Shown here piece after piece: positions 9,059 to 44,674 of a stretch of 64,000 bases of DNA. The stretch comes from Octopus sinensis (lineage: Eukaryota). Both the position numbers and the translations under genes were made by a program. The notes beneath the pieces are model-generated. The model saw nothing but the letters and a program-made list of their open reading frames with translations, did no database searches and had not been told where the DNA came from. Where the stretch lies: the NCBI RefSeq assembly GCF_006345805.1, contig NC_042997.1:208072001-208136000 (forward strand), in the 5' to 3' direction. Numbering within the stretch: position 1 is the stretch's first letter; every line of letters begins with the position of its first letter.

Positions 9059-9286
9059 CTTTACTATTTCTGTGTTGGAGGATAAACCACAAAAGTAAAC
9101 ATCTTTGATCCGGCTTGAATTTAGATCTGAGTAGTTTTTCACGGCTTCATACATAATTCCAGGTAATTTTTCAATGGGGTACCTCAATTTTCCGGCTCCT
9201 AATATAGGAAATGCAAGACTTTTTGCTCCCATTCTCTCCGCAGTTTCCAGACAAATGGTTATTATGCGAGTCAAGTTTGTCAGAAT
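9059..9286 (-). CDS. Exon of PARP14-like macrodomain gene (module A, macro C-terminal half)
   Basis: 228 bp, ttag acceptor and gtggtt donor, phase 0/0; ILTNLTRIITICLETAERMGAKSLAFPILGAGKLRYP contains the macro S(L/I)AFP.(L/I)G.G motif. Confidence 0.9.
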
Positions 9287-9856
9287 CTAAAAAAAATAAG
9301 TGTCTAGTAAATGGTAATAGACATTTTATTAAATTATTTTCTTATTACAGGAAGGAATCATTAAGTTGTAATAAATATATTCTCCCCTCACACTGTCATT
9401 CCTATCACTCTTTAGTCCTGCAAGAGACAAGGCAACCTCACTCATGTTCCTGCTACAATAAAACAGACCCAATCCACCATGTAAAATGGTTGTTGAATGA
9501 AGAGAGACAATGCAGACCCAAGAGGAGTCTTAGTGTTGGGGAGGACGACAACCTCTCTAGTGCTCGTGCCATGACAGAGAAAAACTCACCAATACAGAGA
9601 GTAAAACAGAGAAATATGTTTTATATAGTCTTATTATCAGTCACATAACTTTGTTAGGCCATGAGGCTTTTTTCCTTCTATTTATATAAAAGTGTCCTGT
9701 TCATCGATATCTTCTGCTTCCTTCCAATGATAACTTGGAAGACCAAATATTAAACAGGATGCTGTCATTTGCTTTATGATTCTCACACAACATGCATAAG
9801 GTTCTCTTCAAACATTAACTGTTTCAATAAATCAATATCATATGATTGATACTTAC

Positions 9857-10084
9857 TGAATCAGGGGGATATTTATCCCAGGGAGGTAATACCAGATGAA
9901 ATACATTCTTACAGTTGAGGTTATATCCTTTAGTGACGGCTATTTCAGACATAGAAATACCTCGAGGATATTTCTGGCAACATTCATCTTGTATCTCAGG
10001 ACCAGCAGCAAAAAAAATAAATTTGGAGATAGACCCTTTGTCAAGCTGGAGATGTTCATTGGAGCTGTTAACGATGACATCAAC
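9857..10084 (-). CDS. Exon of PARP14-like macrodomain gene (module A, macro N-terminal half)
   Basis: 228 bp, ctag acceptor and gtaagt donor; VDVIVNSSNEHLQLDKGSISKFIFFAAGPEIQDEC...TKGYNLNCKNVFHLVLPPW. Confidence 0.9.
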
Positions 10085-10365
10085 CTAGAAAAGTAATTAA
10101 TGGTAAACAGCTAAGGAACATTCCGTGGAGAGAAGAGAGATACATTATTGCAGTTGATATTGTTGTTAAGAAAGGCTCTACAGAATGGCTGTAGTAAGTT
10201 TGAGGTTGTTAAAGTTAGCAAAAGATATACTCAAGATATCAGATGTGAAGGAAATAAAATGTTTGAGTTTGATTGAGAAAATGTTTTAATTAACTGTAAT
10301 GATTCCTTATTTGGAAATGAAATAACAATTAAATATAAATAAGTTACATGAATCTATTTACTCAC

Positions 10366-10502
10366 AGATGCATTAGAAATTGAATCAATCATTAGGTTTA
10401 TTTTGATGCCAGCATTTTCTCTGGGTGTCACATTAGTTCTGGGTGTCATGGAGGATGATTCCTGCGGTAGATCAGGAAGGGATGGGTTTGATGAAGGGGT
10501 TG
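10366..10502 (-). CDS. Exon of PARP14-like macrodomain gene (module A, linker and first strands)
   Basis: 137 bp, ttttcag acceptor and gtgagt donor, phase 1/0; TPSSNPSLPDLPQESSSMTPRTNVTPRENAGIKINLMIDSISNAS joins in frame to VDVIVN. Confidence 0.85.
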
Positions 10503-10616
10503 CTGAAAATAAACAAATATCAACATACATACATACATGGATATAGATTTTAAATCATAAAGTCTGCTCTATTCTTTAGGGTGTGCTTCTCATTCTGTTA
10601 TATGTTATATTAACAA

Positions 10617-10654
<38 letters not shown>

Positions 10655-10658
<4 letters not shown>

Positions 10659-11190
10659 TTAGCTGGGCATATTAAGCATCAGATGTGGTGTACAAGAGAG
10701 ACAACTGTGACACCACATCTGAAGAAGTTCCAATGTCTACCAGTGGAGGAAGCTGTAGAAGAGGGAGGCCAGGAAGACATGGAATGAGGTGCTTAAGCAT
10801 AATCTTCAATGATGGGCCACATGGAAGCAATGACTAGTGACCAAGACTTTGGCAATATGCCAAAATTGAGAAGATATGTCAAGCCAAGTGAAATCATAGC
10901 TTGTGTGTCTTTGTCGGTGTCACCTAACTGCCAGCCATGCCAGTGGCACGTAAAAGTACCATTTGGGATGTTGTGCCTCATAGAGGCCATGTGGTTGATT
11001 CAGGTGTCATGTAACTAGCACCCATGCTGTGGTATATAAAAGCACCCATTACATTATTGTTGGGAAAGTTATCCAGCTGTAGGAACCATGCCAAATCAGA
11101 CTGGAATCTGGTGCAGCCCTCAGCTTGCCAGCCCTGGTCGAACCGTCCAACCCATGCCAGCATGGACAATGGATGCTAAATGATGATGGT
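10655..11190 (+). mobile_element. RTE 3'-end fragment
   Basis: Decayed RGRPGRHG region followed by the family tail ccgtccaacccatgccagcatgg...gatgat. Confidence 0.75.
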
Positions 11191-12374
11191 GAATATACAT
11201 ACGTATATGCATGCCATCATCAGCATTATCCCCATCTACATTTGATGCCAATGCTGGCCAAGTGGAACAAAATGATATGTAAAGACACATCCGTCATAGA
11301 CAAAAGTCATGCCCCAAAACTGTTATATATATTCCTGTCCATGCTGGCCCTACACCCCATCTGTCCCAGTGAAGCATCCCCTCACCACATCTCATCTTCC
11401 TAACACCCATCCCTCCATTACTCTTCTAACTACGGTCCTACTTTGCTGCTGTAACCATTTGACAGCAATCTTACAAATCAGTTTTGCACAGATAACATCT
11501 AACCTGTGCTCATCAGAGTGGCAGTTGGAAGTAGGGCAATGGTTTCTGACAGCAAGTGCCACATCTCTAATTGCAAAAGACAATTAGAGAGGAGGATTCC
11601 ATCATTGGTTATGCCACTTGTTCAAAATCTCTGAGTGAGGAGTAACTGCAGCAAAGTGGAATTTGGTTTTAATTAAGCATCTGGGTGGTGAGAGTTCTTA
11701 AATATAAGTTTCTCTTTTTGGCAAGGCACAGACTTCCCTTCTGCTACCATTGAAGTAAAGATTACTTTCCTTCGGCAATCATAACATGCGTAGCCATGTA
11801 TGTGGCATTTTTCTCTCATAGACCTTAAAGGAGGTCTTGGGATTGTTATATATGGTTCTGAGTGGACCTTTTAGTCACGCCCACATATTTCCACATGTTC
11901 TTCTATTTGCTGAAGTAACATTCAAAATGATACTGAACAGAAATAATACAAGTTTCACTGTATAATCTGCTCAATATTAATACAAAGACAGTTCATAATT
12001 ACTGGGAAAATATTTAAACAGAAAAAAAAATGAAAATGTTTTCTCTCACAAAACTGACTGATACAGTTTTGAGAAGCACTTTAGGTTGTTCTAAGCAGAA
12101 AAGAAAAGTGAGAACATCTGTGTATAGTATCAGAGGTCATTCTGTTTAAAATGCAGTTTTATAATGCCCAACATGGTTTCCTGAAAACCATTTGACCAGA
12201 CTATTTGGTGGGAAGATTCCATTGCCCTTGGTTATACATCAGCTGATCTGACTGGCCAAGCCATGTTCACAGAGGTGTTAGTGACTTTCATAGAGGCACA
12301 ATTTATTTTCCCTAATTGGTTTTCTTTTCGTAGCAATATGCTTGGCTGTGGTCCTAGCTGTGGCAGCATGTGGT

Positions 12375-13400
12375 AAGTGAGAAAAATATTGGTTTCAAAG
12401 CTAAATGCTAGAAACATAACTCTGGCAATGAACTTGGCAATATGCTGGAATTCTGAAGTGGACAGAGTAGGAGTTGGAGAGGAAGACAAGAAAGCTCATA
12501 ACGATGATGCATGGAAGCCATCATCCATGTGCAGACACAGATCACCTAGACACGAAGAGAGCAAAAAGAGGAAAAGGGACGAGATACCTAGCCGAAAGTA
12601 AGGAAACCTTGCTAGTGGCAGCTAGGAATGAGGGAGTATTGAGAGCAGAGAGAAAAAAGGGAAAACAATGAAAGAAGTACAAAAGGGACGTGAAGAAGGG
12701 AGTACATAATTAGTTCCATGTAACCACAACAGAAGTTGCAGGAAAACCTAAATGGGATTGACTGAAGAAAGGAACACTGAAAAAAAGAGGCCGAGAGCAG
12801 CAACATACTGGCAGTGCAAGGCCAAACTTTGGCCATGAATTAAAGGGTGAACCTTAGGAATGAGCAAGTGTCTTTGCTGTGCCGCATCTGTAACAGAGTG
12901 GTTACAACCATTACCCACATTATGAATGAATGCCTTAGACTTGCCCAAATTGTGCCACTACAAATTGTGGCAACATGATAATTAGTGAAAGTGCTACATT
13001 GGAAACTGTATGAAAAGTGGGGGTTAGAGAGAGGCAAGACATGGGATGAGTATAAGCTTCAGAGAGTGGGGGAGTTGGAGACTTGTAAAATCCTCTGGGA
13101 CCTCTCAATCCAAACCGATCAGGTGCTAAAGCATAAAAAAAGACTGGGCCCAGTGGTTGTGGAGAAGATGCACCACATGTGCTACATAGTTAATGTTGCA
13201 TGTCCCTTTGACCCATGGATAGTCAAGGACGAAGGTAAAAGAAAAGTACATATATACAATCATCAAAGTACGGCTATAGGAATGATGGAAGTGAAAGTAG
13301 TACCAATTGTTATTGGGTCCTTGGGGACATTTCTGGAAGGCATCAAGGGAAGTATAAAGGAAATTAGAATAGAGTGCCCAGTAGAAATGTTAAAGTAGTG
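12375..13400 (+). mobile_element. R4/Dong-like restriction-like-endonuclease LINE, 3' fragment
   Basis: VLHWKLYEKWGL, KILWDLSIQTDQVL, IVNVACPFD and VVPIVIGSLG resemble the RLE domain of R4/Dong-type elements. Confidence 0.75.
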
Positions 13401-13490
13401 TGCAGCAAGCCCACTATGCATGCAAGACTGTGATAAAAAGAATAATAATAAAATTTGTTAAAGCAAAATGTTTCTTTCATATATGAAGCA

Positions 13491-14630
13491 CTAGCTGTTG
13501 TACCCGGTAATTCCTTGGGGTAAAGATGTTCTATTGAAATGCCTTATTACTCTGATATAAGAAAGCAATTTCGTTATAACTGCAACAAAAGGTGTACTTT
13601 CCTCCTGGAGGAGGGAGAGGTTTCCGGAGGTTGGCAAGAAAGAATGTCGGAGGTTGGTGAAAGAGGTTGTCGGATGTTGGCAAGGGACAAAGACATTATT
13701 CTGCTTAGCGAAGGCATCTGAGAAATGTATAACTGCTGTCATTCACAGTAAAAAACTATTGTTTTACCGTGAGAAAAGAGTTGTTGAAGTGTTAAGTGAA
13801 ATTTGGCAATTGAGGATCGAATCCATGCTATGTCAGCATGAAGCCACTACAAATATTGTGTGGAAAAAAATTTATGTACTGTCATGGAAAAAGTGTATCT
13901 GTAAAAATGCGGAATTATCGGAGTAATGGGCATTCAAAAAAGTAAGTATGTATGTATAGAAATGTATGAATGAAGTTTTTAAGGTTTAAGATTCAAATAA
14001 AGGAAGTGCAATAATAATGTTTAGTAGTTCAAAACTGTGAGTAGTGAAATGCAGAATTAGGTCAGCTGATCATGAGAATCAAATATTGATCACTTTGCTA
14101 AAATTTGCAGGTGGTATGGGTTATTTCCCTTGGATTGTTTAAATAAAATATTAGTAATATATAGTAGATTGAAAGATCCATTGGAAGGGCCCTATTATTG
14201 ATTTTTTTCAACAATCTAAGTATGTCACGAGGTTTCCAGACATGAATTCTACTCACGTGTCAAATAAAGTATAAAAGTAATATTGTCTGCAAAAATTAGA
14301 AATAGGACACACAAAAAATCAATATTCAAAGTATTCGAACATAAACACTGAAATGGGTTATTTCCCTTGAGTGTTTAAAAAAATACTGTATAGGTGCTAT
14401 GGGCTATTTCCCTTGGATGTTTAAAAAAGTAGTCATATGAGGTAGATATAAAGGTCCCTTCCAGGGGCTGCATTATCAATTTTTTTCAACAATCTAAGTA
14501 TGTCTCGGAGTTTCCAGGCATGAGTTCTACTCACACATCAAGTTTCATCGAAATTGATAAAACGATATAGGAGGAGTTAGCTAACAACGTCACAAACAAA
14601 CAAACACCGATTTTCCACATATGTAGTAGA
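13491..14630 (-). mobile_element. Non-autonomous Helitron
   Basis: Minus strand starts TC at 14630 and ends cccaaggaattaccggg hairpin followed by CTAG at 13491; inserted between A and T with no TSD; internal direct repeats. Confidence 0.75.
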
Positions 14631-14899
14631 TAATTGCTGTTAGACATGTTACCACAACACAAGCATAAAACAGATAACGTAAAAAGGTGGAACTACAATA
14701 TCCCTACACAAATTGTGAGTACAAATATAAACCTCAACTGATCACAAATGCATTCTCATCTCCACACATGTACCGACGACTGTGTATACAAGTCACACAT
14801 GGACAAAACATCGACTACACAGTATTTAAATTGCTTAGATAAATAAATAATAATAATAATGGTGGTAATAATGATGATGATACTAGTAGTAATATCCTC

Positions 14900-16283
14900 T
14901 TTGCCACTTATGTGGAAATTATCGACTGGAATACTCGCAGAGTCAATGTAAGAACGTCTGGAAAAAAATGGAGTCCTCACACATGAGCAGAAGGGTTGCA
15001 AGTATAAGTGCAGAAGTATCAAGGATCAACTCCTGATAGATAAAAATGTACTCAGAGACTGCAAGAAGAGGAAAAGTAACTTAGCTATGTCATGGATCGA
15101 CTATCGTAAGGCATATGTTATGATTCCACGTTCTTGGATTACCTATTTGGTAATGCATCAAGTGTTGAGCGATTGCTTGGTAAAAGTATGGCGAATTGGA
15201 GGACGGACCTGACAGTATACAGAAGAAGTTTAGGGACAGGAGAAATTAGGAGGGGCATCTTCCAAGGGGACTGTCTGTCCCCACTGATCTTTGTAAGGTG
15301 CTTGATACCACTAACACTGATTCTGAGGAAAGCAAAGGCTGGGTGTGTATTCAAAAGCTGCCAGCAAAAAGTCAACCATTTGTTATTCATGGATGAACTC
15401 AAACTTTTTGGTAAAGATGAAGCCCAAGTCAGTTCCATCTTTTCATATGGTGTATACATTCAGTGCTGATATCAGAATGGAGTTCGGACTGAGAAAGTGT
15501 GGTGTGTTAGAATTGAAGAGAGGCAAAATCAAATGTATGGACGGACTAACAATACCGTTGGGGGGGTTTGTGAAGCAGATAGAAGAGACAGGCTATAAAG
15601 TACTTGGAGATTTTGGAAATGGATAAACTGATGGAGAAAGAAATGACAGAAACATCTAAGGTGGAGTACTTGCACAGACTGAGACTGCTCCTAAAGTTGA
15701 AATTAAGTGGACGGAATAAGATCGAAGCTATCAAGACCTGGGTGGTTTCACTCCTTAGATATGGAGCAGGGATAATCGCATGGACAGTAGACGAACTAAA
15801 CAGCTGAGATAGAAAGACAAGGAAGTTGCTAACTAGATATGAGACACTCCACCCAAAAAGTGACACAGACAGACTGTATGTACCAAGAAAAAGAGGGGGA
15901 AGAGGACTTATTGGATGTGAACACAGCATTAGAGCAGAAGAAAACAACATAGCATAGTATGTAAAAAAATGCCACACAATCGCTATTATAAAAAGTAAAA
16001 AGGTCAGGCTTGTGTAGAATGAAAGATTGCAAAGATAAAGCACTATACAAGCAATTGAAAATAGGTGGGTAAAGAAAAGAATGCATGGACAATTTGATAG
16101 AGATGTTGAAGATAAGACAGACAGAGAAAAAAGATGGGTGTGGATGACTAAAAGTGATTCAAAACCGGAAACAGAGGTTCTAGTCTGTGCTGCCCAAGAG
16201 GAAGCACTAAGAACAAACTACATAAAATACAGAATAGACAATACAGCAGAAAGTGATAAGTGCAAAATTTGTGGACAAAATGG
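14900..16283 (+). mobile_element. R4/Dong-like RLE LINE, RT region, decayed
   Basis: [40 protein letters not shown] and MHGQF...CAAQEEALRTNYIK; abuts (AAT)n. Confidence 0.85.
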
Positions 16284-16284
16284 C

Positions 16285-16337
<53 letters not shown>

Positions 16338-16374
16338 CAATAATGATAATAATAATAATAATAACAATAATAAT
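16285..16374. repeat. (AAT)n microsatellite, also the tail of the adjacent Tx1 element
   Basis: About 30 AAT units read directly. Confidence 0.95.
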
Positions 16375-16375
16375 A

Positions 16376-19300
16376 CTTTCTTTATTGGCTACCAAGGCTA
16401 AATACAAAACATAAAGGATGATTCTACAAGGGTTAGTGGGGTTAAACGTCTAAATAGCAAAACAAAACAACAATTAACAAAGAGATTAAACGAACAATGT
16501 TCTTCTCCAATAGGGAGGAGTTCCACCGAAGAGTGAGCAAAAGAACATCACACCCTTTGGACCCCCTAATACCAAAGGTACCTCATGTAGGCACCCCTCT
16601 CCTCCTCATTCCATCCGGCCTACAGACCCACACTTAGAGTAGGCCCATTCACGTGGGCCATTCTTGACATATTCACCCACCTTTCAACAAACTTACTGAG
16701 TGACAGTTCTTACCCCTCCAGTCTCAATTTCCTTTGCAGGAGGAACTTGAAAGGTCAATTGAGGCCTTGGCCAAAGAGGAAGGTACCTGTCTTCAACTCT
16801 TTCAATTGTGTCCACCACACAACCACTTTCAATAGCCACCACACAGAGAAAAACTGTCCTTCCCAGCCAAAGGAAAGAGGTGGGATGATCTTCATGATGG
16901 ACTTGGATGATAGCTAAATCTGTCTTACATGTGACAATAACTGTTTGACAAAAGTTTATAAGTCAGCAATGCGTGGACACTGTAGGAGAGCATACAGAAC
17001 GGATTCATTGCTCCACTGGCATCTCATACATGCTCATCTGACTGCACACCTGTGCCTGTAGAGCTTATTGTGAACTGGCAGACCCCCCTGGTAGCACTGC
17101 CAGGTCATGGATTTCTGGAAGTTGTCCATAAGCCCTGGCCCAAAAATCTTCTGAAAGAGACCAGCCAGTGGATCCCTCTCAACACCCAAAACCTCTGTGA
17201 CAACGTCGCACCTCTTGCCATCTACTAATCCCCTATAGAACTCCAAAGTGGAACTTCCACTGACTGCATCACCCCACTAGCCAAGGGTTGTTAGCACATG
17301 GAGACACTCTAGGTGCTAAGCATCCTTCTTCGGTCTACGCCTGATCCAGGACTGTTGCCCCATCAAAGAGACAATCTGTGGAAAAGTGCATCCAACAAAT
17401 GGTGACCACACCTACTCACTGTTCAGGTATTTCTGGAGATGTTGCAGCCTCAGCACATGTCTGTGCATCATGAGCCATAGCATACCCAGTCCACCATGCA
17501 ATGAGTTCTGACAGCAAATGGATCATCTGACAAGTGGTACATGCCCCTTCCACAGGAAGCAGAAGAGGAAGCCCACCAGCCTGTTCAGCTATGAAGCAGC
17601 GCATGGGTCGTCGACAGTCAGGTAGTAGTATATGATGGATGGGATGTACGTATTTGTCACCTCCTCCCGACCTTTCAGGGATAGCTTCCTCTCCGCTCAT
17701 TTGTGGTTGAGACTGGTTACCCTGTCTGTCATTTCACCCTAGTTTGTGTCCACTTGGAGGTCCACATCAAGCCAGACCAACTTAATCAGTCCTTCCATCA
17801 AACACCCCGCAATGCTGTCACTCGGCAAGGGCCTGCCTCTCCAGGAGCCGAGCTGCAGGCTCACTGACTTCTAGCTAATCACTGCTCCTGTCATCGCTTC
17901 ATATTCCATTAGGATAGTGTCAACCATTTTGATTTCCAAGACATCCAACACTATCATGGTAACATCGGCCGCATATGAACTTTCCGTATCTTAGTTCACA
18001 AGGGAAGCCCCTTGAAACATCCAACACCTGCAGTAATGGCTTGAGTACCAGTATGTAGAGAAGGGGTGAGAGTGGATATCCTTGACAGACTAAGCATGCG
18101 ATGCTAAATGATTCCGACATGTGGCCATTTACTTTGACCTCCGAACAGATGTCGCTGTACATTGTAGCAGTCCAGCCTCTGAAAACAGGACCAAAACCAG
18201 CTGCTTCAAGGACAGCTTCCAAGTACTGATGGTAAACCCATTTGAAAGCTTTCAATTGATCCAAATTGATCAGGGCCCCTCCCATGCCAGGTTCTTTACC
18301 AACCTTCTCTATGATGTATTGCATGAGGTAGAGGTTGTCATGGATAGATCTGTTGGGAATAGTGCAAGGCTGCACATTACCCACCAATCTGTCAATGACA
18401 AGTGTCAACTTCTTTGCTAAAACCTTAGTCAAAATTTTGAAAAATGCAGAGTTACAGTCCTAAAGTTATCAACAATGTCACCCTTGTTTGGATCCTTTCT
18501 CAGTAGTACCACTACACCTCAGCTCACAGACCTGTGTATTCTTACATTCTGCTGCCAGTTGCGGTAGACACCCTACAAAAGCTCACCAAACTAGTCTGGA
18601 ATATAAAGCTTGAAGGGCAAACCATCCTATCCCAGAGACTTTTCCCTCATGCAACTAGCCAATGCATCACATATATTCTTCAGCTGTAATTGGCATTTTG
18701 CAGAACTCAACCTTCCTGGATGAAAGCCATGACAGAGCATCAAGTGGGGAAGTGAAGTTCACCTCCACCTCCAGACTACCACATGTCCCATACAGTTCAG
18801 CAAAGTGCCACTGAAATTCTGCACAAATCTGCTTGCACTCGTGTAGCATCTACCTGTCCCACCTCTCAAAGACTGAACTGAAGTTTCATTACCACATAGC
18901 ACCTCAGCCACCCAGTGCCATCGAACAGCTTTCATTCCTTCCTGTTTTAGAGCATGTGCCCTAGCTCTCACAATGCAACCTTTATGCTTGGTGTTGAAGA
19001 ATTGGTTCAGAACCAATCTCGCTACCAGCACATCGGTCACTATGCTTCTACTGAGTGCCTCTTCCAATATCTTAACTAGATCTCCCTCTACTCTAGTCTT
19101 CTTTATCACTAGTTGTCTGCTAAATTTTACAACTTCTACTGTAACCCCCCATTTTAGGGCCACCCACCATCGGTTGTTGACAACTGCACCTGTCAACTTT
19201 CGATGGACCAACCTGCTAAGTCAGTATCTGAAAGCTTAATGTGCTGGGAAGGACGTATTCTGCTTCCAGTATCCGGGACCCTGCCTATGAAGCAGGTCAA

Positions 19301-22210: not shown

Positions 22211-22412
22211 CTATTGGCTTATGCTCCCATTTAAACAATAATATAAAAGGAGTCAGTAGTTTTGATAACAAAAATACCTGTCAAGCTTCCAGCCTTCCAA
22301 CTGCTAGTAGTAGTAGTAGTAGTAGTAGTAGTATAATAATAATAAATTTGTCAATCTACTTCATTTGGTTAATATATAAAGGACTTTGATAGCATGCACT
22401 GCTCTCTCACTC

Positions 22413-22449
<37 letters not shown>

Positions 22450-22454
<5 letters not shown>

Positions 22455-23019: not shown

Positions 23020-23085
<66 letters not shown>

Positions 23086-23097
23086 AATAATAATATT

Positions 23098-30920: not shown

Positions 30921-30959
30921 ATATTTATATGTGTGTGTGTGTGTGTACTATGTTTAGAT

Positions 30960-31562: not shown

Positions 31563-31599
<37 letters not shown>

Positions 31600-32440
31600 A
31601 CACGTCTGATATATACATGTGTATACATCTTCACATATATATTTTCTTATATTGCTAATCACTGAAGTGCTAAACCATGTAAATTCCTTAATTCTTCATA
31701 CTACTAACCCCATCTTACACTGAGACTCCACCACTACACATTTGTCACTCCTTTACCTCTTAGCCCCACACCCCCAATTCCTTCTAACTTTTTACACTCT
31801 AATACCTTTCTCTTTCCATCACCCTTTATCTCCCCACTCCTATTTTCAAATTATTTCCACTGACCCCTAACTGGTACACTTTCCTTTATCTATATCTTTG
31901 TTTTTCTTTTCTCTTATTTTTTTCTTTCCTTTATTCCTCACTTCCTGTTTTTTTATTTTATTATTTCATTATTTTCTTCTTACTTTCTTCTTTTTTCTCT
32001 TCTTCTTCTTTCCTTATTCTTCTCTTCCTGTTTTCAATTTGACCCTATGAATATGATCCCTATTTTTAGGTCACTTTAAAGAAAACCCTTGATTCAATAA
32101 CACTGTGTATAAACTCTATACTTGGAATGACCAATTTTAAATACTATTGGATTTTACTCATAAGGTATTGGAATCTTATATATATATATATATACCATTC
32201 AGCCTAAAAAATGGATCTACACATACAATTTCCCTATGCATCTCACATCTAATTTTTTTCCTCCACCTCTGTTTTGTATCACATCTAAACTAACTATGAC
32301 TTAACCATCCTCTCACACCGTCTCCGATGAAGGGATATAATCAATAAATATCCTGGAAACAGCTGTAAGACCTTCTATCTACAAATGTTCTAAAATCTAC
32401 ACAGCCTTGGTTTCTTATCTCATTACAAAAAAAAATTTTT
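30960..32440 (+). mobile_element. Penelope-like element 3' end (GIY-YIG C-terminus and terminal repeat)
   Basis: STTLANHIYHLKNANIPYTLSWSIL..C..C..E...LLNKHNEALSTCNH matches the Penelope endonuclease C-terminus; hammerhead motif at 32320-32371. Confidence 0.8.
32320..32371 (+). ncRNA. Minimal type I hammerhead ribozyme candidate (core variant)
   Basis: GTCT-CCGATGA-AGGGATAT..ATATCCTG-GAAAC-AGCT-GTA-AGAC: stems I, II and palindromic III, GUA cleavage triplet; CUGA changed to CCGA. Confidence 0.65.
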
Positions 32441-32959
32441 ATATATATATATAAATGTGTATATATATACATAAATTTGTGTGTGTATATATATATGTAT
32501 GTATGTATAAAAGAGAGAGAGAGAGAGAGAGAAAGAAAGAATAAAGATTTGTATTTCTTCATCCAATACTGTAAGAAGTTACTTCTTTTAAAGAATCTCA
32601 CTCACTTTCTCTCTCTCTCTCTCCCTCTCCCTCTCTGTCTGTCTGTCTGTCTGTCACTGTTTTTTCCTCTAGCTCGTCCCTATACACAATCAACCTAGAC
32701 AACTCACAGGCACTGTCCACCTTGGTTTCCTTCATTCAATCGTTTCAGAAAACTAGTTGAATGATTATTTCTCTCTCAGTCATTTTTTCCATATTCTTCA
32801 CCAGTTTCATGAATTAAAGTCCCTCTTTAAAGACATCCCAAGATGGCAATGTGCTTCTGTGAAAGTAGACTCTATTCAAAAACTAATATGCATTTTCATG
32901 TCTCAAATGTTTCTTCTATTTCAATATTGGTTTACATTCATCATTATCACCACCACCAC

Positions 32960-35058
32960 CACCACCACCACCATCATCATCATCGTTTAACATTTGTTGT
33001 CTATGCTTGTATGGGTTGAAGAGTTTGACTGGGGCTGGCAAGCTGTAAGGCTGCCCTTCCTAATGCTCACCACTCCAAGAGTGGTGACCATTAGGTATCT
33101 GCCATGGCTGTGATTTTTCATGGATTGCTGGGTAATTTTTGCTTCCATGAGGCCCAATGCTTGAAAGGCACTCTCTACATGCCAGTTATGTGACACCAGC
33201 ATCAGCTATGTCTATGATTTGACTTGGTTTGACAAGTCTTCTCAAGCACAGCATTTCGCCAAAGGTCTCAGGGACCAGTGCTTGGCTATCACAGCCCATG
33301 TTTCACTGCCCTCTAACATGGCTGTATGCACAAAGGCATCAAACAATCTGCCTTTCACTCTGAGAGAGAGGCCTTCATTGCCAGCAGAGGTAGGATCTCT
33401 CTGAACTTTGCCCAGCATAATCTTATTCTTACAGCGATGCTCTCAAAGCATCCACCTCCACTACTAACTTGGTCACCTAGATAATGGAAGCTATCTACTA
33501 CCTCTAGCTCCCAGGGCAGTTGATGGAGTCTATTTCCTACACATTTTTAGCGTGTATTGTACCTGTGCATCTCCCACATACAAAAGCTAGTTTCCCTGTT
33601 AACCTTCCTCTGATATTGCTACATCTCTTATGTGTCCATTGCTTGCTCTGGGTACATCTTATGGAGTTTCTACCTATGCCTTTTCTACAGATCGAGCAGG
33701 GCCATCTATCTGAAGGGATTTGTGATTTGTCTGCCTTCCTACTTATTAAGACTTTGGTTTCTGCGAGGTAAACTCAAAGGCCCTTCAATTCTAAGCTTTG
33801 TTTCCATACCTGGAATTTCTCTAGTTCACATAGTGATTCAGCTATAAGAGCAAAGTCATCAACAAAGAGGAGCTCCCAGGGGCAGCCGCTCTCAAATTCC
33901 TCTGTTATTGATTGGAGGACTATGATGAACAAGAGATGGCTGAGGACCGAACCCTGGTGAACCCCTACTTATACCCTGAATTCTTCACTGTACTCATAGC
34001 CAACTGGTAGCATCCCTGTACAAGGCTTGTAAAGCTCTCACTAACCACTCATCTATCCCTAGTTTCTGCACTGACCACCAGATAAGAGGACTCTGTCAAA
34101 AGATTTCTCCAAGTCAACAAAAGCCAAGTACAGAGGTTTATCTTTGGCTAAGTATTTCTCCTGCAGCTGTCTTACTAGAAATAAAGAACAAAGCCAAACT
34201 AGATTTCATCTAGACTAACTCTCTCTCTGATTAGTTGGGCTACAACCCTCTCTGTAACTTTCATCACCTGATCCAACAATTTGATACCTCTGTAATTATT
34301 TCTATTTAGGCATCACCTTTACCTTGGTAGCAGTTGACTATTAAGCTGCTACACCAGTCATTGGCTATGACTTCCTTCATGAACCACTTGATTCACAACA
34401 TGGGTGACTTGACCATAACCCACATATTAAGCATTTCAATGGTGATTCCTGAAGGGCCGAGAGATTTTCCTCTCTTCATATCCTTAATTGCTTTATCTAC
34501 CAGGGTATTGTCCATTCAGGGAGCTGGTCCTTCAGTTTTGTCAACCTTTGACAGACTCTCCTCCTTGCATTCATTCTCTATGTTCAGCAGTCTTTCATAA
34601 TGGCTTCTCCAAGCCTCTTCCTTTGCAGAATCACTAAAACAAGTGCACCATCATCCAAATGGACACATTTCTTTCCAGTGACATCACGATTTCCCCTCAC
34701 ACACTGTCTTGCAATCTGAAATACTTCAGGTCCTTGTTCCTCGTGTTGCTGAACTTTGGCAAACTTCTTCATTTCTGCTCGTCCCTTGGCTATATATCTG
34801 ACTCCTAACCTCCCTTCTGGCTGTCAGGTACAGTTCCCTGCTACCTCCAGTCTTCCAGGCCTGTTTCTTTGCTCTAATGGTCCTGTCTACAGTATCGTTC
34901 CACCACCACATTACCTTAGGTTTTGAAGGGACTTGTACCAGCCACAGATTTAGCCTGTGGTGGTCTACAAACTGTCCCTCAGGGATTCTCAGTAGCCTTT
35001 TATATCACAAGTCCTCCCTTTCGTTAAATTTCTCAATTAGGATGTCCCTAAAGCACTG
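32960..35058 (-). mobile_element. RTE LINE, decayed
   Basis: Reverse strand MWWWNDTVDRTIRAKKQAWK, EVFQIARQCVR, RT and zinc-finger remnants; tail near 32960. Confidence 0.9.
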
Positions 35059-35059
35059 A

Positions 35060-36890
35060 CCATATGAAAGAACAGGGTATGGATATAAAATTGGCAAGAG
35101 GAAAACAAGTCATCTGTTTTATGTGGATGACTTAAAACTTTATGGCAAAGGTGATAATGAGCTTGAAGGACTACTACGTACTGTGAAAGCATTTAGTGAT
35201 GACCTTGGGATGGAATCTGGTTTTGATAAATGTGTCAGGGTCACTTTCCAGAAAGGGAAATTGAAGACGTCACATTCAGTGGAGTTGGATGTTGACACAG
35301 TCATAAAAGAACTCAAGCAAGAAGAAACTTACAAATACCTCGGAATAAATGAGGCTCGCCTCGTTCCTGTGTGCACATGGAAAGTTAGTCCAGTTATTCA
35401 ATGAAATAATAAGAGATCCTGCGAAAACACCCGACTGGTTAGCAAGAGGTATTACTTACCTACACCTGAAGAATAATGGAACCAACTTTCCCCAAGACTA
35501 TCCACCCATGACATATCTATCTGCCACGTATAAAATTTTAGCATCCATCCTCATGGAGAAAAACATACAAATTTATGGAACAGAATGATATTTTCCCCAC
35601 TGAACAAAAAGGGTGCCGACAAGGCTCATATGGATGCAAAGACCAACTCTTAATGAATAGCATGGCCCTTGAGGAACTGTCATAACAAATGCAGAAATCT
35701 CAGTTCTGCATGGATTGATTATCAAAAAAGGCCTTTGACAGCATGCTGCATTCATGGATCTTGAAATCGCTGGATATCTTCCAAATTTCTCTTGTGATTT
35801 CACATTTCCTGAGGCACAACATGTCAATGTGGAATACAAATCTCCAATTATACCACTCTGATGGAGTTCTGACCACAAAAAATATTAATATCAACTGTGG
35901 CATTTTCCACTTTCATCCTTAATTTTATTCATAGCCCTAATGAACTTAACAGAACAGGGTATGGATATAAAATTGGCAAGAGGAAAACAAGTCATCTATT
36001 TTATGTGGATGACTTAAAACTTTAAGGCAAAGACGATAATGAGCTTGAAGGACTACTACGTACTGTGAAAGCATTTAGTGATGACCTTGGGATGGAATTT
36101 GGTTTTGATAAATGTGCCAGGGTCACTTTCCAGAAAGGGAAACTGAAGACCTCACATTCAGTGGAGTTGGATGTTGACACAGTCATAAAAGAACTCAAGC
36201 AAGAAGAAACTTACAAATACCTTGGAATAAATGAGGGTTCTGGCATTCAGCATGCAAGAATGAAAGAGAAGGAATGGTAAAGGTGAGTTCAAGCAGTCCT
36301 AAAATCCGAGTTAAATGCACGTAACAAGGTGTTAGCAATAAATTCCTTAACAGTTCTGGTTGTTATTTACAGTTTCAATGTATTCAACTGGAATATGAGT
36401 GAAAAAAGGAAGATTGACAGGAAAATCCTTGAGTTGCCGAGTTGCAAAAAGAGGCACCAACCAAAGGCAGATGCAGATCGTCTTTACCTACCCAGAGCTC
36501 AAGGAGGTCGAGGCTTGGTTTGATTTGAAACCTCCTACAAAACCATCACAACTGGACTGGCCAAATATCTTGAAACATCTAATGAATGGATGCTAAATCT
36601 CATTGAAATTGGAAGTGCAACAACTGTAGCTGCAAAGAAGGTGAAACCAATAGCAAAGCAAAATGCGCTTGGACAATTGGATGATGGGTGGGAACAAAAT
36701 CCTCTGCATGGCAAATATGTGGCCCGTAGCAAACAAGCTGATGTAGACCAGAAGCACAGCCATCAGTGTCTAGGGAGCTCAGAGCTTAAAGGTAGAGAGA
36801 GAGAAGGCTTTATCTTGGCTACCCAAGATCAGAATCTACTGACATGGAGCTATCAAGTCAATGTGATGAAAAATGGGGCAGACCCATGAT
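35060..36890 (+). mobile_element. R4/Dong-like RLE LINE fragment with internal duplication
   Basis: YVDDLKLYG, GMEFGFDKC, YKYLGI, HQPKADADRLYLPRAQGGRGL and PLHGKY; 35070-35355 duplicates 35950-36235. Confidence 0.85.
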
Positions 36891-37733
36891 GTAATTGGAT
36901 AGCATGGACCTACCTGCCTTTCCAGGTGCTGAGCTGCAGGCCCACCGACTTTTCTTGGTTACTTTTTGTTCATGTCACCAACTCTTATTCCCTTAGAGCA
37001 ATGTCAACCTGCTCTATTGTTTGACACTAACATGGTGACAACTGGATATGCTCTCCTACATCCTATTTCATGTGGGATGCCTTTCAATGATTTCAGTCTC
37101 TGTAGTAATGGCTCAAGAGCCAGTACATACAGAAGAGGCAAGAGAGGACACCCTTACCAGACAGAATGCATGATAGTGAATGGTTCCAATGGGAAACCAT
37201 TCGCCGGAACTACTAAGCAAATGTCACAATACATTGCAGTGATCCAGCCATGGAAAAATGGGACAGAAATGATGATAGCCACCAATTTTTGGTGGTTGAC
37301 CCTATTAAAAACTTTAAATTTACTCAAATTGATCAGGGCCCCACCCACGCTATGTTTCTTACCCACCCTATCTATGATGTATCGCATGAGTTGGAGGTCG
37401 TCATGGATGGATCCGCTTGGGATTGTACATATTTGTGCATCACCAATCAGTTCTTCAATGACAAGTGCCAACTTCTTTGCTAACACCTTGACCAAAGTTT
37501 TGAATTCTGCATTCTAGAGCATGATGGTCTTAAAGTTTTCTACTGCTTGGGTCCTTTTTTTGTAAAAGTTCCACTAATGCTACCAGTTGCAGTAGATATT
37601 TGCAAAAAGGTTGCCAAACAAGTTTGGCATATAAAAGTAAGACTCTTCAGGCAGGCCATCCTAACTAGACAATCTACCCTATGTCCATCCCATCATCACA
37701 TCCACTATTTCCACAGCTGTTATCCTCTTTTAA

Positions 37734-40348
37734 CCCTTTCGTTACTATATTTGTGACCAAAAAACACCCCTCATGAGTTTCAATTAAATTCTAAAATAAT
37801 CATGAATTTAGACTAGTTTCATTAAACAACTATAACTTTTTTACTTATCAACATATTACTGTGATATTTGGAACATAATTGAAGAAAGGGTTCTTAATCA
37901 ATTCCATTGCATAATTATTGTCTCAAAGTGACTCTAATTACAGGTAAATCCAGGTAAACTGAGCAAAAGGTAAAAATATTAAAATTTTGCTTAAACATTA
38001 CCATAGAAAATCAGTCCTCAGCTAATATTTAATTGAGGTATGCAACAAAATTTTGATATAGAAGAATTGTGCACATCACTAGATTATCAGTTGAATTTAA
38101 TGCACAGAAAAACAGGTGTACCATAAAGGTAAAATAAACTGAAATATTAGAATTTGTTTTTGAAGAAAACTAGAAAATTAAATACAACTGAATGAAATAT
38201 GCTCACACACATACATGAATACACAGGAACATATATAATAAAGATTAACAATAGAAATTAAATCAAAACTTGTCACTCACCTTACAGGCAAATTAAAATT
38301 ACAGGTAAATTAAAATAAAAAGTTAAAACTAAGTAAATTTGAAAAATATTTATACAATTTAATTATACATATATACAAACAATATTTACACTATATTTCT
38401 ATCATGGAAAGTTGTAAAACATCTCACTCTACATACTGCAACCTGGCAGAATGCACATTGGAAGGATGTTTCAACTGGCCGTCCACTGGGAGTTTTTCTT
38501 TTTTGATATAGACATTCACGGCACTGCCTTTTGCGACCCCCGATTTTTTCTAATTTATGTAGATCGGCTGAACTCAGAGGAATATCTCTCTGGCAGGCTT
38601 TGCTTTTCCTTCCTGCATTTATTTTTTTTGAGGAATATCCTGCCTTCAACTTAATTGCTACATCTGCCCGGAACTGCAGATAGTCGCACCGCTTGCGAAT
38701 CCCTCCTGATTTGGTATATAATATAAATGCATTTACAATGCTCATGTTTACTATATACCAAACCAGGTATCGCCACCATTTATTACCCGGTCTACCAACC
38801 GGATAATAACTCATCATCTGGTTCAGCTGATCCACACCGCCCATGTACTTGTTATAATCAAGGTTCACAAACGGAGTGCCATTTTCATCTACACATGGGT
38901 GTGCACTGGTAGATAGAAAATTTATCTGCCTCTTATCTCTGTATGCGGTCGCTAGCAGATTTCCTTTCTGCCGTTGGATTATTTCACCTCTTTTTTTTAA
39001 TTTTGCTTTTTTCATATCCAACGGCAGCCCTTTTCTACTAGCAATTACTGTAGAACACGTATACATTGCCACAACTTCTAAATCCTCCGCAAGTTTGACC
39101 GAACTGAAAAATCGGTCAAAAAATAATATATGGTCCTGGTTATGGTATGGAAGTGATAAATTCCAGACCACATCATACCCTAGGCCATGCTGACTTACAT
39201 AATTGTCTCTTTTCTCTGTATAGAAGTTAAATCCACAGCAGTACCCAGTATTTGATTCACATATCTTCCAAACTTTGATCCCCCATTTTGTGGGCTTTCC
39301 TGGCATATACTGCCGAAAACGTACTTGGCCTTTATAGCCCACCATACCCTCATCGACGGATAAATACCTTCCAGGGTTGTAAAATTTTTTGTAGGCATTT
39401 TGAACACCGTCAATGAGGGGTCTTATTTTAAATAAGGGATCAAAGTTTGGTTCTCCACGTACGGGGGTACTGCTAGTGTCTCTCACATGTAAATACTGGC
39501 TCAGTTTTACAAATCGTATTCGGGTCATAATACTGGAAACACAATGATCCCCAAAAAGTTCCTGGTTGCTCCAGTAATTCGTTATTCTGGGCAATTGCCT
39601 TATGCCCATAATAATATTTATGGCAAAAAATGCCCGCATTTCTTCTACAGTTGTTGGGTACCACAAGCTATCTTTTTTTCGGGCTTGCTTACTTTCTGCA
39701 TAACGGTTTGTCTCCGCAGTTATAGCTTCAAACAAGCATACAGGAAAAAATAAATAAAAAAAAGTCTATTGGTCTCGCTTCCTGAGAAAGACTATGGGTA
39801 GACCCTGTCTCCTCAGAAAAATCGTTAATCGACCCTTTTTTTAAATTGTTACTCCATTCTGGTGTAAATTTATCCTTGTTTGTGTTGCTGCTTTCACTTT
39901 CTGATGAATCGCTTTCATTCTCTGATAAATCGCTTTCGGATATTGAAACATCCGATTCAAATTCATCCACCACGTGCTTTTCTGCTTCATACGTTCTTCT
40001 CCTCGAAATCTCCATATCTTCTCTTGAAAAACCTTCAAATTCGGAGTCACTGCTTGATAGCATAAAACTGCTCTCCATTTTGAAAGTTGAAAAAAATTTC
40101 CATTGATAAAAATTTGGAAAAAAATCTCCAAAAATTCGCAGAGTTCAAATATCAAGCCAAACAATGTCAGATACAATAACTCAACTGTTAGCAAAGTGAA
40201 ATCACGTGTTTTAACGAGTGTACCAACGAGATTTGGGTTCAAATTTACATTTAAATAACAATAGCTTCTCACAGCCGGGTATGGCCGGCTTAGTAACATA
40301 AACCAAAAAATTTTGCAGCCAGGTATGGCCGGGTTAGTAACGAAAGGG
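37734..40348 (-). mobile_element. Full-length piggyBac DNA transposon
   Basis: TTAA at 37730-37733 and 40349-40352; perfect 14-bp TIRs CCCTTTCGTTACTA; subterminal direct repeat cagccrggtatggccggsttagtaac. Confidence 0.96.
38386..40078 (-). CDS. piggyBac transposase (PGBD4-like), one frameshift in a homopolymer
   Basis: Acidic N-terminus; SVDEGMV, YMPGKPTKWGIK, FFDRFFSS and YNKYMGGVD give the DDD triad; C-terminal Cys-rich domain; the 116-aa and 449-aa ORFs join if one T is removed near 39756-39763. Confidence 0.92.
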
Positions 40349-42379
40349 TTAAGTGACACACTGATCCACTTTCTGATAGCTGTCACATGCAGTTAAGGTA
40401 AGCACTGAAGTCCATTTACCTTCCAGGCTGCCAAATATTTATCCCAAACAGCTGGGCAAAATGCTGCTGAAATGCTGTAGACATCTGCTCTGGAATGAGT
40501 AGCATGCACCTATATTAGTCCACCAAAGATCGAATTATGGCTTTGTTTTCCATGTTGCACCACTGCCCTTTGGGCCCATTGAGTGGCTTTCATTCCCTCT
40601 TCTCTTAGAGCATGCACCTTAGCTCTTGCAATGCAAACTTCATGTTTAACATTGAAGAACTGATCCAGGCCAAGTCAGTTTCAACAACTTTCCTAAGTGC
40701 CTCTTCTAAGTTTCTCTCTAAATTTTCTTCTAATTCCTTTCTAACACTAATTCCTTACTAAACCTAGCTGATTCTACTCTAATTGCCCTTTTCAGGGCAA
40801 ACCACCATTTGTTGCTCATGAATGTCCCATCAACACCTGTTTAACTAATTCTTTAATCTTGGCACACTGGGAGAGATGCATTCAGCATCCAGTAACTGGG
40901 TCCCTACGATGTAAGCCTATCAAGGCTGACCATACAAATCACAAATGTGTAGCCAACTTTTACTATCTTTATCTACTGGCCTACAGAATACCCTGTCTAA
41001 AGATGAGCTGGATGACTTGATGCAATTCATCCATGTCCAAACTGGCACATCAGGGAAATCTAGTCAGTACCTGTCAGATATTTCGAAATGTCTGAGCAGG
41101 TTTGCAAGCCTTTTACCCCACCCCCACCCCTTTTTTTCTCTTGTAGCCCACACAGTCCAAACATGGATCTATGATGGTACTTCATTCGCCCACTAACACT
41201 AAAGGGCAGGGTGCTCATAGGAAAGCCTCCGGACGTCTGAAGCAGACTGGATGTCCTGTTCCTGTCAGAGCATAAACAGTCACCAGTCTGAAGGGACCCC
41301 CATCACTATTGTCCAGCATCACCAACTTCCCTCCTGGGGCGTATCTGGATCAACACCACTGTTCCACCACCCATCTCTCATTGGAATTGAGATAAATATA
41401 CCTTGCATCCATCGAAAATGGACATGAAAGCTTTAGTTGGTCAGAGAATCTGGTTTTACTGATGGCCACTACATTGACACTTAGTGACATGAGGTCATTG
41501 CATAGATGGCCCTTGTTGCCAAGGCAACCCCAGGTCACTCCCATTTATACTGCTGACTCTGAGTAGGGTTAGATCAAAGCATAGAAACGAGGAATTGACT
41601 TAGTTGGTGAGGAGGGGATGGATGTTCCATCTCTATGGATATATGTGGATGTTTCCACAAGCAGTTCTTTACATATTCGTCTCAATTTATGACTCTCTGG
41701 AAAGCCCCCCAACCCGACCCACCTCAGGATATTTTGTTTTGATGGTATTATATGTAGGTCGTGATGTCTGTATGACTTCAATATGTGTCTCTGGCTTGTT
41801 TCTCGGTGACATCAGGTTGGTGTGTGTGTGTGTGAGCTTTCTATGGTTATATATGTGTGATGCATTAGCTTTTTTGTTTTACTTTGTTGTTGTTTGTTGC
41901 TTTGTGGGGTAGTTCACATCTCTTGTTTGTTATTAACAGAAAGCTTTGAGATGGTTTGTATCCTTGCACTGCTGACATCTTGGTTTTCTACCCTCAATAG
42001 CCACATAAAGCTTTGTGCCATCCTGTAGACTAAAACACTTTGCTCGTCTGCCTGTATTAGTAGCACCATCCCCTGTTCTGTTTATGTCTGGTAGGATGTT
42101 GAAAGTTCTTCGACCAAGATAGATGGGAATAATGATTAGTTTCTCAGTTTTTAGGGTAGCTGCCGAGTGATTTTTTGCTTTCCTCCTTTGAGATGAACCT
42201 CACTTTGACAGTCCCATATTTCTTTCCCTTGGCTACATAAGTTTTGCTTTTCCAAACTGGTTTTAAGCATTTCTCTATTTGCTGCTATGTTGCCTGCTCT
42301 ATTTTCCTACTTTTGGCTCCAGTTGCTTCATATAAAACTGTCTGCAAGTTAATTTCCTGCTGGATAGTTCTAGGAATGT

Positions 42380-42920
42380 TTACTGCCACATTTCTGACAG
42401 AAATGCCAAAAAAGTAAAAAAGATTTTCAGCAAAAAACTTGCACACAGTCGCAATAGTTCAGTATGGCTCTGGAATCCTGAAGTGAACAAAGGAGAAGCT
42501 AAAGGAGATGGACAGGAAGACAAGAAAGCTCTTAACGATGTATGGAGCCCATCATCCACAAACAGACACTGATTGCCTATACAGGAAGAGAGGGAAATGG
42601 AGAAAGAGGACTGATAAGTGTGGAAGACTGTATACGTACCAAACTCCAGAGCTAAATGAGATACGTAACCCAAAGTAAGGAAACCTTGCTAGTCACAGTT
42701 TGGAACGAGGGAGTATTGGGAGCAGGGAAAAAAGGGAAAACAAAGGAAGAAGTACAAAAAGGACATGAAGAAGAATTACCCAAGAAGGGACTACATAATT
42801 AATTCCATGCAGCTAAAACAGAAGTTGCTGAAAAAAATTGGTGGGATTGGCTGATGAAAGGAACCCTAAAAAAAGAGACCAAGAACACTATACTGGTGAT
42901 GCAAGACCAAGTATTAGCCA
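42380..42920 (+). mobile_element. R4/Dong-like LINE fragment
   Basis: Similar to 12400-12830 (gacaagaaagct, aaagtaaggaaaccttgctagt). Confidence 0.7.
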
Positions 42921-43221
42921 CAAATTTTAGGGTCAATTTTGCACGTTCGAATTGTGCTTCTCTCTATTGTACAGAACTTTCTAGAGATAAGAGTTGAAGA
43001 AAACCAAGCTAACCTACGTGTATGCCAGAAAAAATCACAAAACACATTAAAGATTCCAATATTACTGAACAATTCTAAGACATCAATAAAGGATCCCATA
43101 TTTTATTTTATTTTTCAAATTTTATTCCATATTTTATTTCATCATAGAATCATTGGGGGTGGAGAGGGTAAATTCCAAAAATATCAACATCAAACAACAA
43201 ACAACAAATACATCAACCAAC

Positions 43222-43449
43222 CTTTGCTATTTCTGTGTCTTGAGGATAAACCACAAAGTTTACAACTTTGATCTGGCTTGTATTTTGATTTGAGTAGTTT
43301 TTCACGGCTTCATACATAATTCCAGGTAATTTTTCAATGGGGTACTTCAATGTTCCAGCTCCTAATATAGGAAATGCAAGGCTTTTTGCTCCCATTCTCT
43401 CAGCCTTTTCCAGACAAGTGGTTATTATATGAGTCAAGTTTGCCAGAAT
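43222..43449 (-). CDS. Exon of PARP14-like macrodomain gene (module B, macro C-terminal half)
   Basis: 228 bp, atag acceptor and gttggt donor; ILANLTHIITTCLEKAERMGAKSLAFPILGAGTLKYP...VNFVVYPQDTEIAK. Confidence 0.92.
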
Positions 43450-44028
43450 CTATAATAAATAAGTGTCTAGTAAATGGTAATAGACATTTTATTAAATTAT
43501 TTTCTTATTACAGGAAGAAATCATTAAGTTGTAATAAATATATTCTCCCTTCACAACTGTCATTCCTATCACTCTTTAGTCCTGCAAGGGACAAGGCAAC
43601 CTCACTCATGTTGCTGCTACAATAAATCAGACCCAATCCACCGTGTAAAATGGTTGTTGAATGAAGAGAGAGAATGCAGACCCAAGAGGAGTCTTTAGTG
43701 TTGTTGAGGACATGACAACCTCTCTAGTGCTCGTGCCATGACAGAGAAAATCTCACCAATACAGACAGTAAAACAGAGAAATATGTTTTAATATAGTCTT
43801 ATTTATCAGTCACATAACTGTTGTTAGGCCATGAGGCTTTTTCCCTTCTATTTATATATAAAAGTGTCCTGTTCATCGATATCTTCTGCTTCCTTCCAAT
43901 GATAACTTGGAAGACCAAATATTAAACAGGATGCTGTCATTTGCTTTATGATTCTCACACAACATGCATAAGGTTCTCTTCAAACATTAACTGTTTCAAT
44001 AAATCAATATCATATGATTGATACTTAC

Positions 44029-44256
44029 TGAATCAGGGGAATTTTCATCCCAGGGAGGTAATGCCAGATGAAATACATTCTTACATTTGAGGTTATATCC
44101 TTTAGTGACGGCTATTTCAGATGCAGAAATACCTCGAAGATATTTCTGGTTACATTCATCTTGCATCTCAGGACCAGCAGCATTGAGAATACTTTTTGAG
44201 ATAAACCCTTTGTCAAGCTGGAGTTCTTCATTGGAGCTGTTAACGATGACATCAAC
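44029..44256 (-). CDS. Exon of PARP14-like macrodomain gene (module B, macro N-terminal half)
   Basis: 228 bp, gtag acceptor and gtaagt donor; VDVIVNSSNEELQLDKGFISKSILNAAGPEMQDEC...TKGYNLKCKNVFHLALPPW. Confidence 0.92.
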
Positions 44257-44537
44257 CTACAAAAGTAATTAATGGTAAACAACTAAGGAACATTCCATGG
44301 AGAGAAGAGAGATACATTGTTGCAGTTGATATTGTTGTTAAGAAAGGCTCTACAGAATGGCTGTAGTAAGTTTGAGGTTGTTAAAGTTAGCAAAAGATAT
44401 ACTCAAGATATCAGATGTAAAGGCAATAAAATGTTTGAGTTTGATTGAGAAAATGTTTTAATTAACTTTAATGATTCCTCATTTGGAAATGAAATAACAA
44501 TTAAATATAAATAAGTAACGTGAATCTATTTACTCAC

Positions 44538-44674
44538 AGATGCATTAGAAATTGAATCAATCGTTAGGTTTATTTTGATGCCAGCATTTTCTCTGGATGT
44601 CACATTAGTTTTGGGTGTCATAGAGGATGATTCCTGTTGTGGACCAGGAAAGGATGGGTTTGGTGATGGGATAT
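44538..44674 (-). CDS. Exon of PARP14-like macrodomain gene (module B, linker and first strands)
   Basis: 137 bp, ttttcag acceptor and gtgagt donor, phase 1/0; IPSPNPSFPGPQQESSSMTPKTNVTSRENAGIKINLTIDSISNAS. Confidence 0.85.

Follow-up and report, generated by a model that had tools for sequence, protein, structure and literature searches.

A PARP14-like octopus gene with two MD2-like reader macrodomains belongs to a multiplied and mosaic family

Seven minus-strand exons in a 64,000-nucleotide stretch of Octopus sinensis DNA (the window; contig NC_042997.1, positions 208,072,001 to 208,136,000) are the middle of an annotated macroPARP gene, that of RefSeq protein XP_029643253.2. They encode two macrodomains, called B and A in the order in which they are translated. 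Taken whole, the evidence is probably best explained by a PARP14-like macroPARP whose readers, resembling PARP14 macrodomain 2 (MD2), have been multiplied, converted and kept diverse by selection. What is new is that one reader domain appears to have been multiplied and reshuffled specifically in octopus; the gene itself, which the initial annotation had called hidden, already had its RefSeq model.

The gene and its two window macrodomains

All seven exons have GT-AG borders at the coordinates first proposed, and each AG acceptor is preceded by a pyrimidine tract. Splicing them gives one frame of 413 amino acids with 0 stops; the other two frames contain 31 and 40. The spliced peptide equals residues 778-1190 of XP_029643253.2 letter for letter, and a protein search with one of the exons, M1_B, returns this protein as a 100% match. 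XP_029643253.2 has 1426 residues in the order RRM-macro-macro-macro-ADP-ribosyltransferase (ART), and its gene is located on the 213-Mb O. sinensis chromosome. The window holds the second (B) and third (A) macrodomain. The other exons (RRM, macrodomain 1 (MD1) and ART) are absent from it by tblastn and exact 7-mer searches, and Rfam gives no match. One of the seven exons appears in the stop-to-stop list of open reading frames of at least 90 amino acids. The exon joins are supported by the predicted RefSeq model, not by reads.

Module B starts with exon L_B (44538..44674, 137 nt, phase 1>0), which encodes a Ser/Pro/Thr-rich linker and the first strand of the macrodomain (residues 777-822). The N-terminal half of the domain with loop 1 comes from exon M1_B (44029..44256, 228 nt, phase 0>0, residues 823-898; Pfam Macro 3.8e-11) and the C-terminal half with loop 2 from exon M2_B (43222..43449, 228 nt, phase 0>0, residues 899-974). 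After an 18.9-kb intron (24274..43221) full of retroelements, exon S (24219..24273, 55 nt, phase 0>1, residues 975-992) supplies the last helix of macrodomain B and the start of the next linker; 16 of its 18 residues are identical in the same exon of paralogues P0106 and P0020. A repeat-rich 13.7-kb intron (10503..24218), in which neither macro nor ART exons of the octopus paralogues were found, leads to module A. Its exons are L_A (10366..10502, 137 nt, linker and first strand, residues 993-1038), M1_A (9857..10084, 228 nt, N-terminal half, residues 1039-1114; Pfam Macro 2.7e-11) and M2_A (9059..9286, 228 nt, C-terminal half, residues 1115-1190). Module A is 81% identical to module B, M1_A and M1_B share 62 of 76 residues, and Pfam Macro scores above its curated cut-off in all four 228-nt exons.

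The exon phases (1>0, 0>0, 0>0, 0>1) make the 137/228/228/55 unit of 648 nt, or 216 amino acids, phase-1 symmetric and hence expandable in frame, as had been predicted. The companion claim that the four-exon cassette is repeated in the window holds for the first three exons, which are doubled; the 55-bp exon is single. No second copy was detected in the window by blastn or motif search, and among 144 AG-55-GT intervals between the modules (50 of them stop-free) exon S alone starts like the post-macro exon of the family. The exon downstream of module A lies outside the window and is of a different type.

Both 228-nt exons are phase 0-0, so skipping from M1_B to M2_A or from L_B to M1_A would give chimeras. 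The locus could thus be imagined as a combinatorial splicing device in which in-register 648-nt skips yield chimeric or shorter reader sets, a repertoire per gene. Of the forward skips that the seven exons allow, ten preserve the frame and two of these are also in register, and paralogues have RefSeq isoforms of the expected kind: those of XP_029633854 drop 216 or 225 amino acids at the S/L, L/M1 and M1/M2 registers, and those of XP_029633907 drop 210 at M1/M2. However, the same register-keeping skips are produced when short reads are mis-mapped between near-identical repeats, and this gene is represented by a single protein in its cluster. A splicing device is therefore rated very improbable.

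The call of a lineage-specific, PARP14-like macroPARP, provisional in the initial annotation, is supported by the RefSeq model, in which RRM, three Macro and PARP domains stand in one protein, and by the single clade formed by the octopus readers. The N-terminal RRM matches PF23085 (E 3.5e-10), and the ART, outside the window and known from the RefSeq model, matches PF00644 at residues 1267-1387 (E 3e-15). Two of the three Pfam Macro domains that accompany this ART are within the window. The N-terminal region has no Pfam KH match and resembles bivalve PARP14 N-termini (E 8e-24 to 5e-13). The ART triad residues are His1322, Tyr1353 and Ile1413, an H-Y-I triad that we take to be of the mono-ART type. 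The initial annotation had suggested looking for RRM, WWE and PARP exons in the flanks; RRM and ART are present in the RefSeq model and WWE is not. A 59-residue gap separates the macrodomains from the ART where the KH8/WWE segment would be, with no Pfam WWE match. A short Trp-containing repeat occurs twice upstream of the ART (residues 1210-1245).

According to PMC10221186 (section 3.1), loop 1 of a hydrolase macrodomain lies between Asn/Ser and Gly, and its loop 2 contains a hydrophobic-aromatic pair. This signature is present in the first macrodomain of XP_029643253.2 (NAAN..GGV, GIF), which groups with PARP14 MD1 (support 100/99). The B/A-type domains were compared as a set of 55 reader modules taken from 30 proteins, with a single isoform per protein and modules shorter than 125 amino acids dropped. 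The loop-2 aromatic is absent from all 55, and the second loop-1 glycine is replaced by Ser, Ala or Phe in the octopus readers, its position being set by the alignment made here. The Phe is in module B, where Phe840 directly follows the invariant loop-1 glycine; the other octopus modules have Ser or Ala there (50/50). Phe840 might narrow the ADP-ribose pocket.

The closest solved single domain to the window macrodomains is PARP14 MD2, both by sequence (3q71) and by fold (3q71, root-mean-square deviation 1.6). A predicted model of B and A together (mean predicted local distance difference test score 78.9) contains two equal macro folds joined by a linker of approximately 38 residues (model residues 178-215) that is predicted to be disordered. 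In phylogenies, the octopus readers come together without exception in a single clade (53 of 53 rows, support 99/98; 11 of 11 in a second tree, 100/100), which falls among MD2-type domains with moderate support in a wider tree. Placing module A with macrodomain 3 (MD3) is rejected (approximately unbiased test, p 2e-5), and the third macrodomain of the protein is thus not of the MD3 type. By sequence comparison, both window macrodomains are classified as reader-type and nearest PARP14 MD2. This PARP14 domain binds ADP-ribosylated peptide in the part of PMC6008491 drawn on here, and MD2 and MD3 of PARP14 are treated as readers without hydrolase activity in the corresponding part of PMC10499325.

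Diversity and proposed exchange between modules B and A

Block B (43167..44696, minus strand), which comprises three exons and two short introns, is 93.5% identical to its partner, block A (9006..10526, minus strand). The homology is confined to approximately 1.5 kb and ends abruptly, about 25 bp upstream of the 137-nt exon and about 53 bp past the second 228-nt exon. Beyond those 53 bp the long introns share no unique sequence and have only interspersed repeats in common. Because the homology ends so near the exons and the long introns share only repeats, A and B are not alike in the way that a simple, recent duplication of the cassette would leave them.

Within the blocks, 24 of 851 sites (2.8%) are different in the short introns, compared with 53 of 570 (9.3%; p 2.5e-7 versus introns) in the exons, frameshifted codons being excluded. 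Non-synonymous sites differ by 9.6%, a 3.4-fold excess over the introns (p 7e-7), and synonymous sites by 8.3% (p 0.004 versus introns); at fourfold sites, 6 of 68 differ (p 0.019). In the part of PMC3924837 drawn on here, opsin duplicates that undergo both conversion and selection combine near-identical introns with divergent exons, and the haplotype diversity of major histocompatibility complex (MHC) and resistance (R) genes is built up by conversion.

Most of the amino-acid differences are between states shared with other modules. Median identity among the 55 modules is 78.5%, and for 21 of the 28 amino-acid differences between A and B both states are found in at least 2 of the 53 other modules. 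In a ranking of the neighbours of B, A comes only 11th of 51, and among those of A, B comes 4th. A PHI-like permutation test for recombination gives p 0.003 within M2 and 0.0002 across M1 and M2 together. Distances calculated from M1 and from M2 correlate at -0.08, compared with 0.30 for 200 random splits (minimum 0.13), and judging from these alignments the two domain exons appear to have unrelated histories. The presumed pocket loops vary more than the remainder (0.84 versus 0.58 bits, p 0.025), and 4 of the 5 most variable positions are within presumed ADP-ribose pocket segments. The best reading of the intron/exon contrast and the mosaic is gene conversion with diversifying selection.

An unlikely alternative does without conversion: all four exons of the cassette were duplicated in tandem recently, and the copies then diverged fast by point mutation under positive selection. 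It would suit introns that are 97% identical and the excess of non-synonymous over intron differences, and positive selection on mammalian macroPARP macrodomains has a precedent in the part of PMC4038475 drawn on here. The end of unique similarity within 53 bp of the exons speaks against it, as does the elevation of synonymous sites along with the non-synonymous ones. Most of the amino-acid differences, moreover, are states common to other modules, A and B are not mutual nearest neighbours, and both octopus species already have the hydrolase-reader-reader-ART layout (P0011, P0012).

In the evolutionary sequence proposed here, an MD2-like reader, carried on a phase-1 cassette of four exons, would have been copied both inside clustered octopus genes and from one to another, and would have replaced macrodomain 3. 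The B and A cassettes would be old as positions. Ectopic gene conversion would have exchanged the 1.5-kb exon-intron block and left the short introns nearly identical, and selection would retain or import differing exon variants from the paralogue pool, mainly near the ADP-ribose pocket loops.

Several observations weigh against this explanation. The ratio of non-synonymous to synonymous divergence between A and B (dN/dS) is 1.16 and does not differ from 1 (p 0.73), so positive selection is not directly shown. The recombination test within M1 is not significant (p 0.2), and synonymous changes do not cluster near replacements (p 0.45). The boundaries of the ADP-ribose pocket loops in the octopus readers are presumed ones. 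The tests use predicted proteins, and chimeric gene models could therefore inflate the discordance between M1 and M2; the intron comparison covers the A/B pair of the window only. A tree in which every octopus reader is made to join the MD3 group cannot be rejected (p 0.073), so an MD2 origin is favoured, not settled. In addition, the shifted heptad of module A described below is unique among the 55 modules, and XP_029643253.2 lacks a C-terminal ART tail that is present in 11 of 12 O. sinensis models. Because of these last two features the locus may be decaying or mis-assembled.

The heptad results from a one-base gain and a one-base loss approximately 16 nt apart in exon M2_A, which shift about six codons of the last strand and loop. 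It has no support among the short proteins searched with exon M2_A and is absent from 10 further proteins. It is in frame only in XP_029643253.2; in P0018 this shifted frame is seen too, but as a terminal frameshift. At the other end of the protein, the C-terminus (residues 1417-1426) leaves the family tail directly after the catalytic strand, and the last ART strand seems to be out of frame. The two indel oddities may be assembly errors.

In the strongest form of this objection, the RefSeq model joins fragments of the cluster, and module A or the whole gene is only a conversion donor or encodes a catalytically dead protein. The compensated indel pair and the missing tail are what such a copy might display. 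No one-to-one orthologue was found among the 16 O. vulgaris proteins gathered; parts of XP_029643253.2 have different best O. vulgaris proteins at 72-93% identity, and no retrieved one matches throughout. Other cluster models have out-of-frame ends, frameshifts or low-quality flags, and some paralogue models begin within the 137-nt exon. Nevertheless, the frame is open and the splice sites canonical in all seven exons, there is no ART exon between B and A, and exon S belongs to the internal-linker type. The structure prediction is confident for both modules and still gives a strand where the shifted codons lie. Decay or mis-assembly is accordingly regarded as improbable, and conversion with selection acting on a PARP14-like gene is kept as the preferred explanation.

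The octopus reader family and the repeats of the window

Protein searches gave 22 O. sinensis models of the family after named isoforms were collapsed, of which the 213-Mb chromosome carries 15 and small scaffolds the other 7, and the 16 O. vulgaris proteins were gathered in the same searches. The seven small-scaffold models may be haplotigs. The number of reader modules in an octopus protein ranges from 1 to 5, with most spacings between 207 and 225 amino acids, and XP_036364784.1 has five at 216-residue steps. The expandable macrodomain array envisaged in the initial annotation thus exists at the level of the family; the gene in the window has the ordinary three macrodomains. Nine of the 19 octopus models with an ART retain a segment of approximately 200 residues homologous to KH8/WWE, and the 10 without it include XP_029643253.2.

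Four matching macrodomain stretches occur in 12 of the 150 proteins listed: one octopus protein, one from Babylonia and 10 others at 26-37% identity. In Saccostrea (P0107), Gigantopelta (P0108) and Babylonia (P0109), MD2-like domains replace or supplement MD3; the Babylonia protein has four macrodomains and the Gigantopelta protein three MD2-like ones. These MD2-like extras in other molluscs suggest, from sequence comparison, that reader expansions arose repeatedly and independently.

The 18.9-kb intron harbours a piggyBac-type DNA transposon (37730-40352) with perfect 18-nt terminal inverted repeats including TTAA. Its open reading frame (38386-39765, minus strand) encodes DDE_Tnp_1_7 and a zinc finger, an acidic N-terminal part lies in another frame (39728-40144), and the element splits an older long interspersed nuclear element (LINE) fragment (36915-37542 and 40442-41303). 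A near full-length LINE at 49831-54616 (plus strand), which we take to be of the Tx1/L1-like class, has a zinc-knuckle ORF1 and an endonuclease by Pfam and is broken by stops; a decayed copy, 64% identical, is at 16656-19671. A reverse-transcriptase-bearing LINE family with a PHD-like finger is present at 2516-5310, 27421-30124, 33289-34978 and 56101-60246 (73-92% identical), the last interval containing two copies inverted around a 370-bp palindrome (57798-58167). Another LINE family has an uninterrupted 492-residue reverse-transcriptase frame at 46362-47840 (minus strand), possibly a young insertion. A weak GIY-YIG match slightly below the Pfam cut-off at 55559-55924 (minus strand) suggests a Penelope-like fragment. 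Four palindromes of approximately 240-260 bp (6763-6999, 26039-26282, 45339-45584 and 62777-63033) resemble miniature inverted-repeat transposable elements, a 286-bp direct repeat of 97% identity is at 35069-35354 and 35951-36236, and a 107-bp tandem array spans 62140-62408.

Relation to known macroPARPs and proposed function

Human, molluscan and cnidarian PARP14 share with the octopus protein the N-terminal RRM region, a hydrolase-type MD1, further non-catalytic macrodomains and a C-terminal ART. The octopus protein differs in that its third macrodomain is a second MD2-like copy rather than MD3, that its gene model is without KH8/WWE, that reader number varies from 1 to 5 among its paralogues, and that it has the intron/exon contrast and the mosaicism. 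On this comparison the gene most likely works like PARP14 yet fails two canonical PARP14 features, MD3 and KH8/WWE.

PARP15 has non-hydrolytic macrodomains joined directly to the ART, without WWE. The octopus readers likewise stand directly before the ART without WWE, and the best matches of the octopus ART include PARP15. PARP15 has MD2 and MD3 only and is mammal-specific according to PMC10221186 (section 3.1). The octopus gene has RRMs and MD1, and its short C-terminus is therefore regarded as convergent with that of PARP15. PARP9 of jawed vertebrates has MD1 followed by an MD2-type domain, as here; it has two macrodomains and an inactive ART in the part of PMC13224862 drawn on, compared with three macrodomains and an ART with an H-Y-I triad in the octopus protein. 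The octopus genes resemble opsin, MHC and plant R genes under conversion in having introns more alike than exons and a patchwork of common variants. They differ from them in what would be converted, a domain cassette that is exchanged both within one gene and from gene to gene.

PARP14 homologues in molluscs and an ancestral three-macrodomain layout are reported in the part of PMC10221186 drawn on, clustered PARP14 duplicates in lancelet and sponges in that of PMC13224862, and positive selection with gene turnover in mammalian macroPARPs in that of PMC4038475. One member of the octopus family, XP_036356136.1, is in the supplement of PMC10221186, whose main text says nothing of octopus. According to the relevant part of PMC11431876, skin mucus contained an O. 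vulgaris PARP14-like protein, and the portion of PMC9334734 on Aplysia counts 17 PARP genes without macrodomain analysis. Databases give XP_029643253.2 and its octopus relatives only an automatic name. No paper describing the octopus macroPARP cluster was found in a search that left subscription journals and most genome-paper supplements outside.

In the mechanism proposed for the protein, XP_029643253.2 would act as RRM region, hydrolase macrodomain, reader B, reader A and mono-ART in sequence. The ART would write mono-ADP-ribose and macrodomain 1 would erase it, as in PARP14. The flexibly linked B and A would bind ADP-ribosylated targets without cutting, and pairing them may add avidity and amplify an innate-immune signal. 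Going further, conversion in the octopus germ line might reshuffle dozens of cassettes and in-register exon skipping recombine them once more, with each gene giving chimeric macrodomains that differ in their pocket-rim residues and recognize distinct sets of ADP-ribosylated targets, whether from pathogen or host. Such a repertoire would apply the logic of MHC or Dscam to the reading of ADP-ribose, and it is a decidedly long shot.

The surprise is limited because the gene already has an annotation, both duplication of PARP14 and positive selection have been described before, and four-macrodomain proteins occur in other lineages. The field views the MD1-MD2-MD3-ART order as ancestral and stable, and readers are usually thought to see mainly ADP-ribose. 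The octopus lineage would have dropped MD3 and turned one reader into more than 50 variants of approximately 78% identity, kept different despite homogenization. These readers are a natural panel on which to test discrimination between ADP-ribosylated targets, and the cluster is a candidate for diversified innate immunity in cephalopods.

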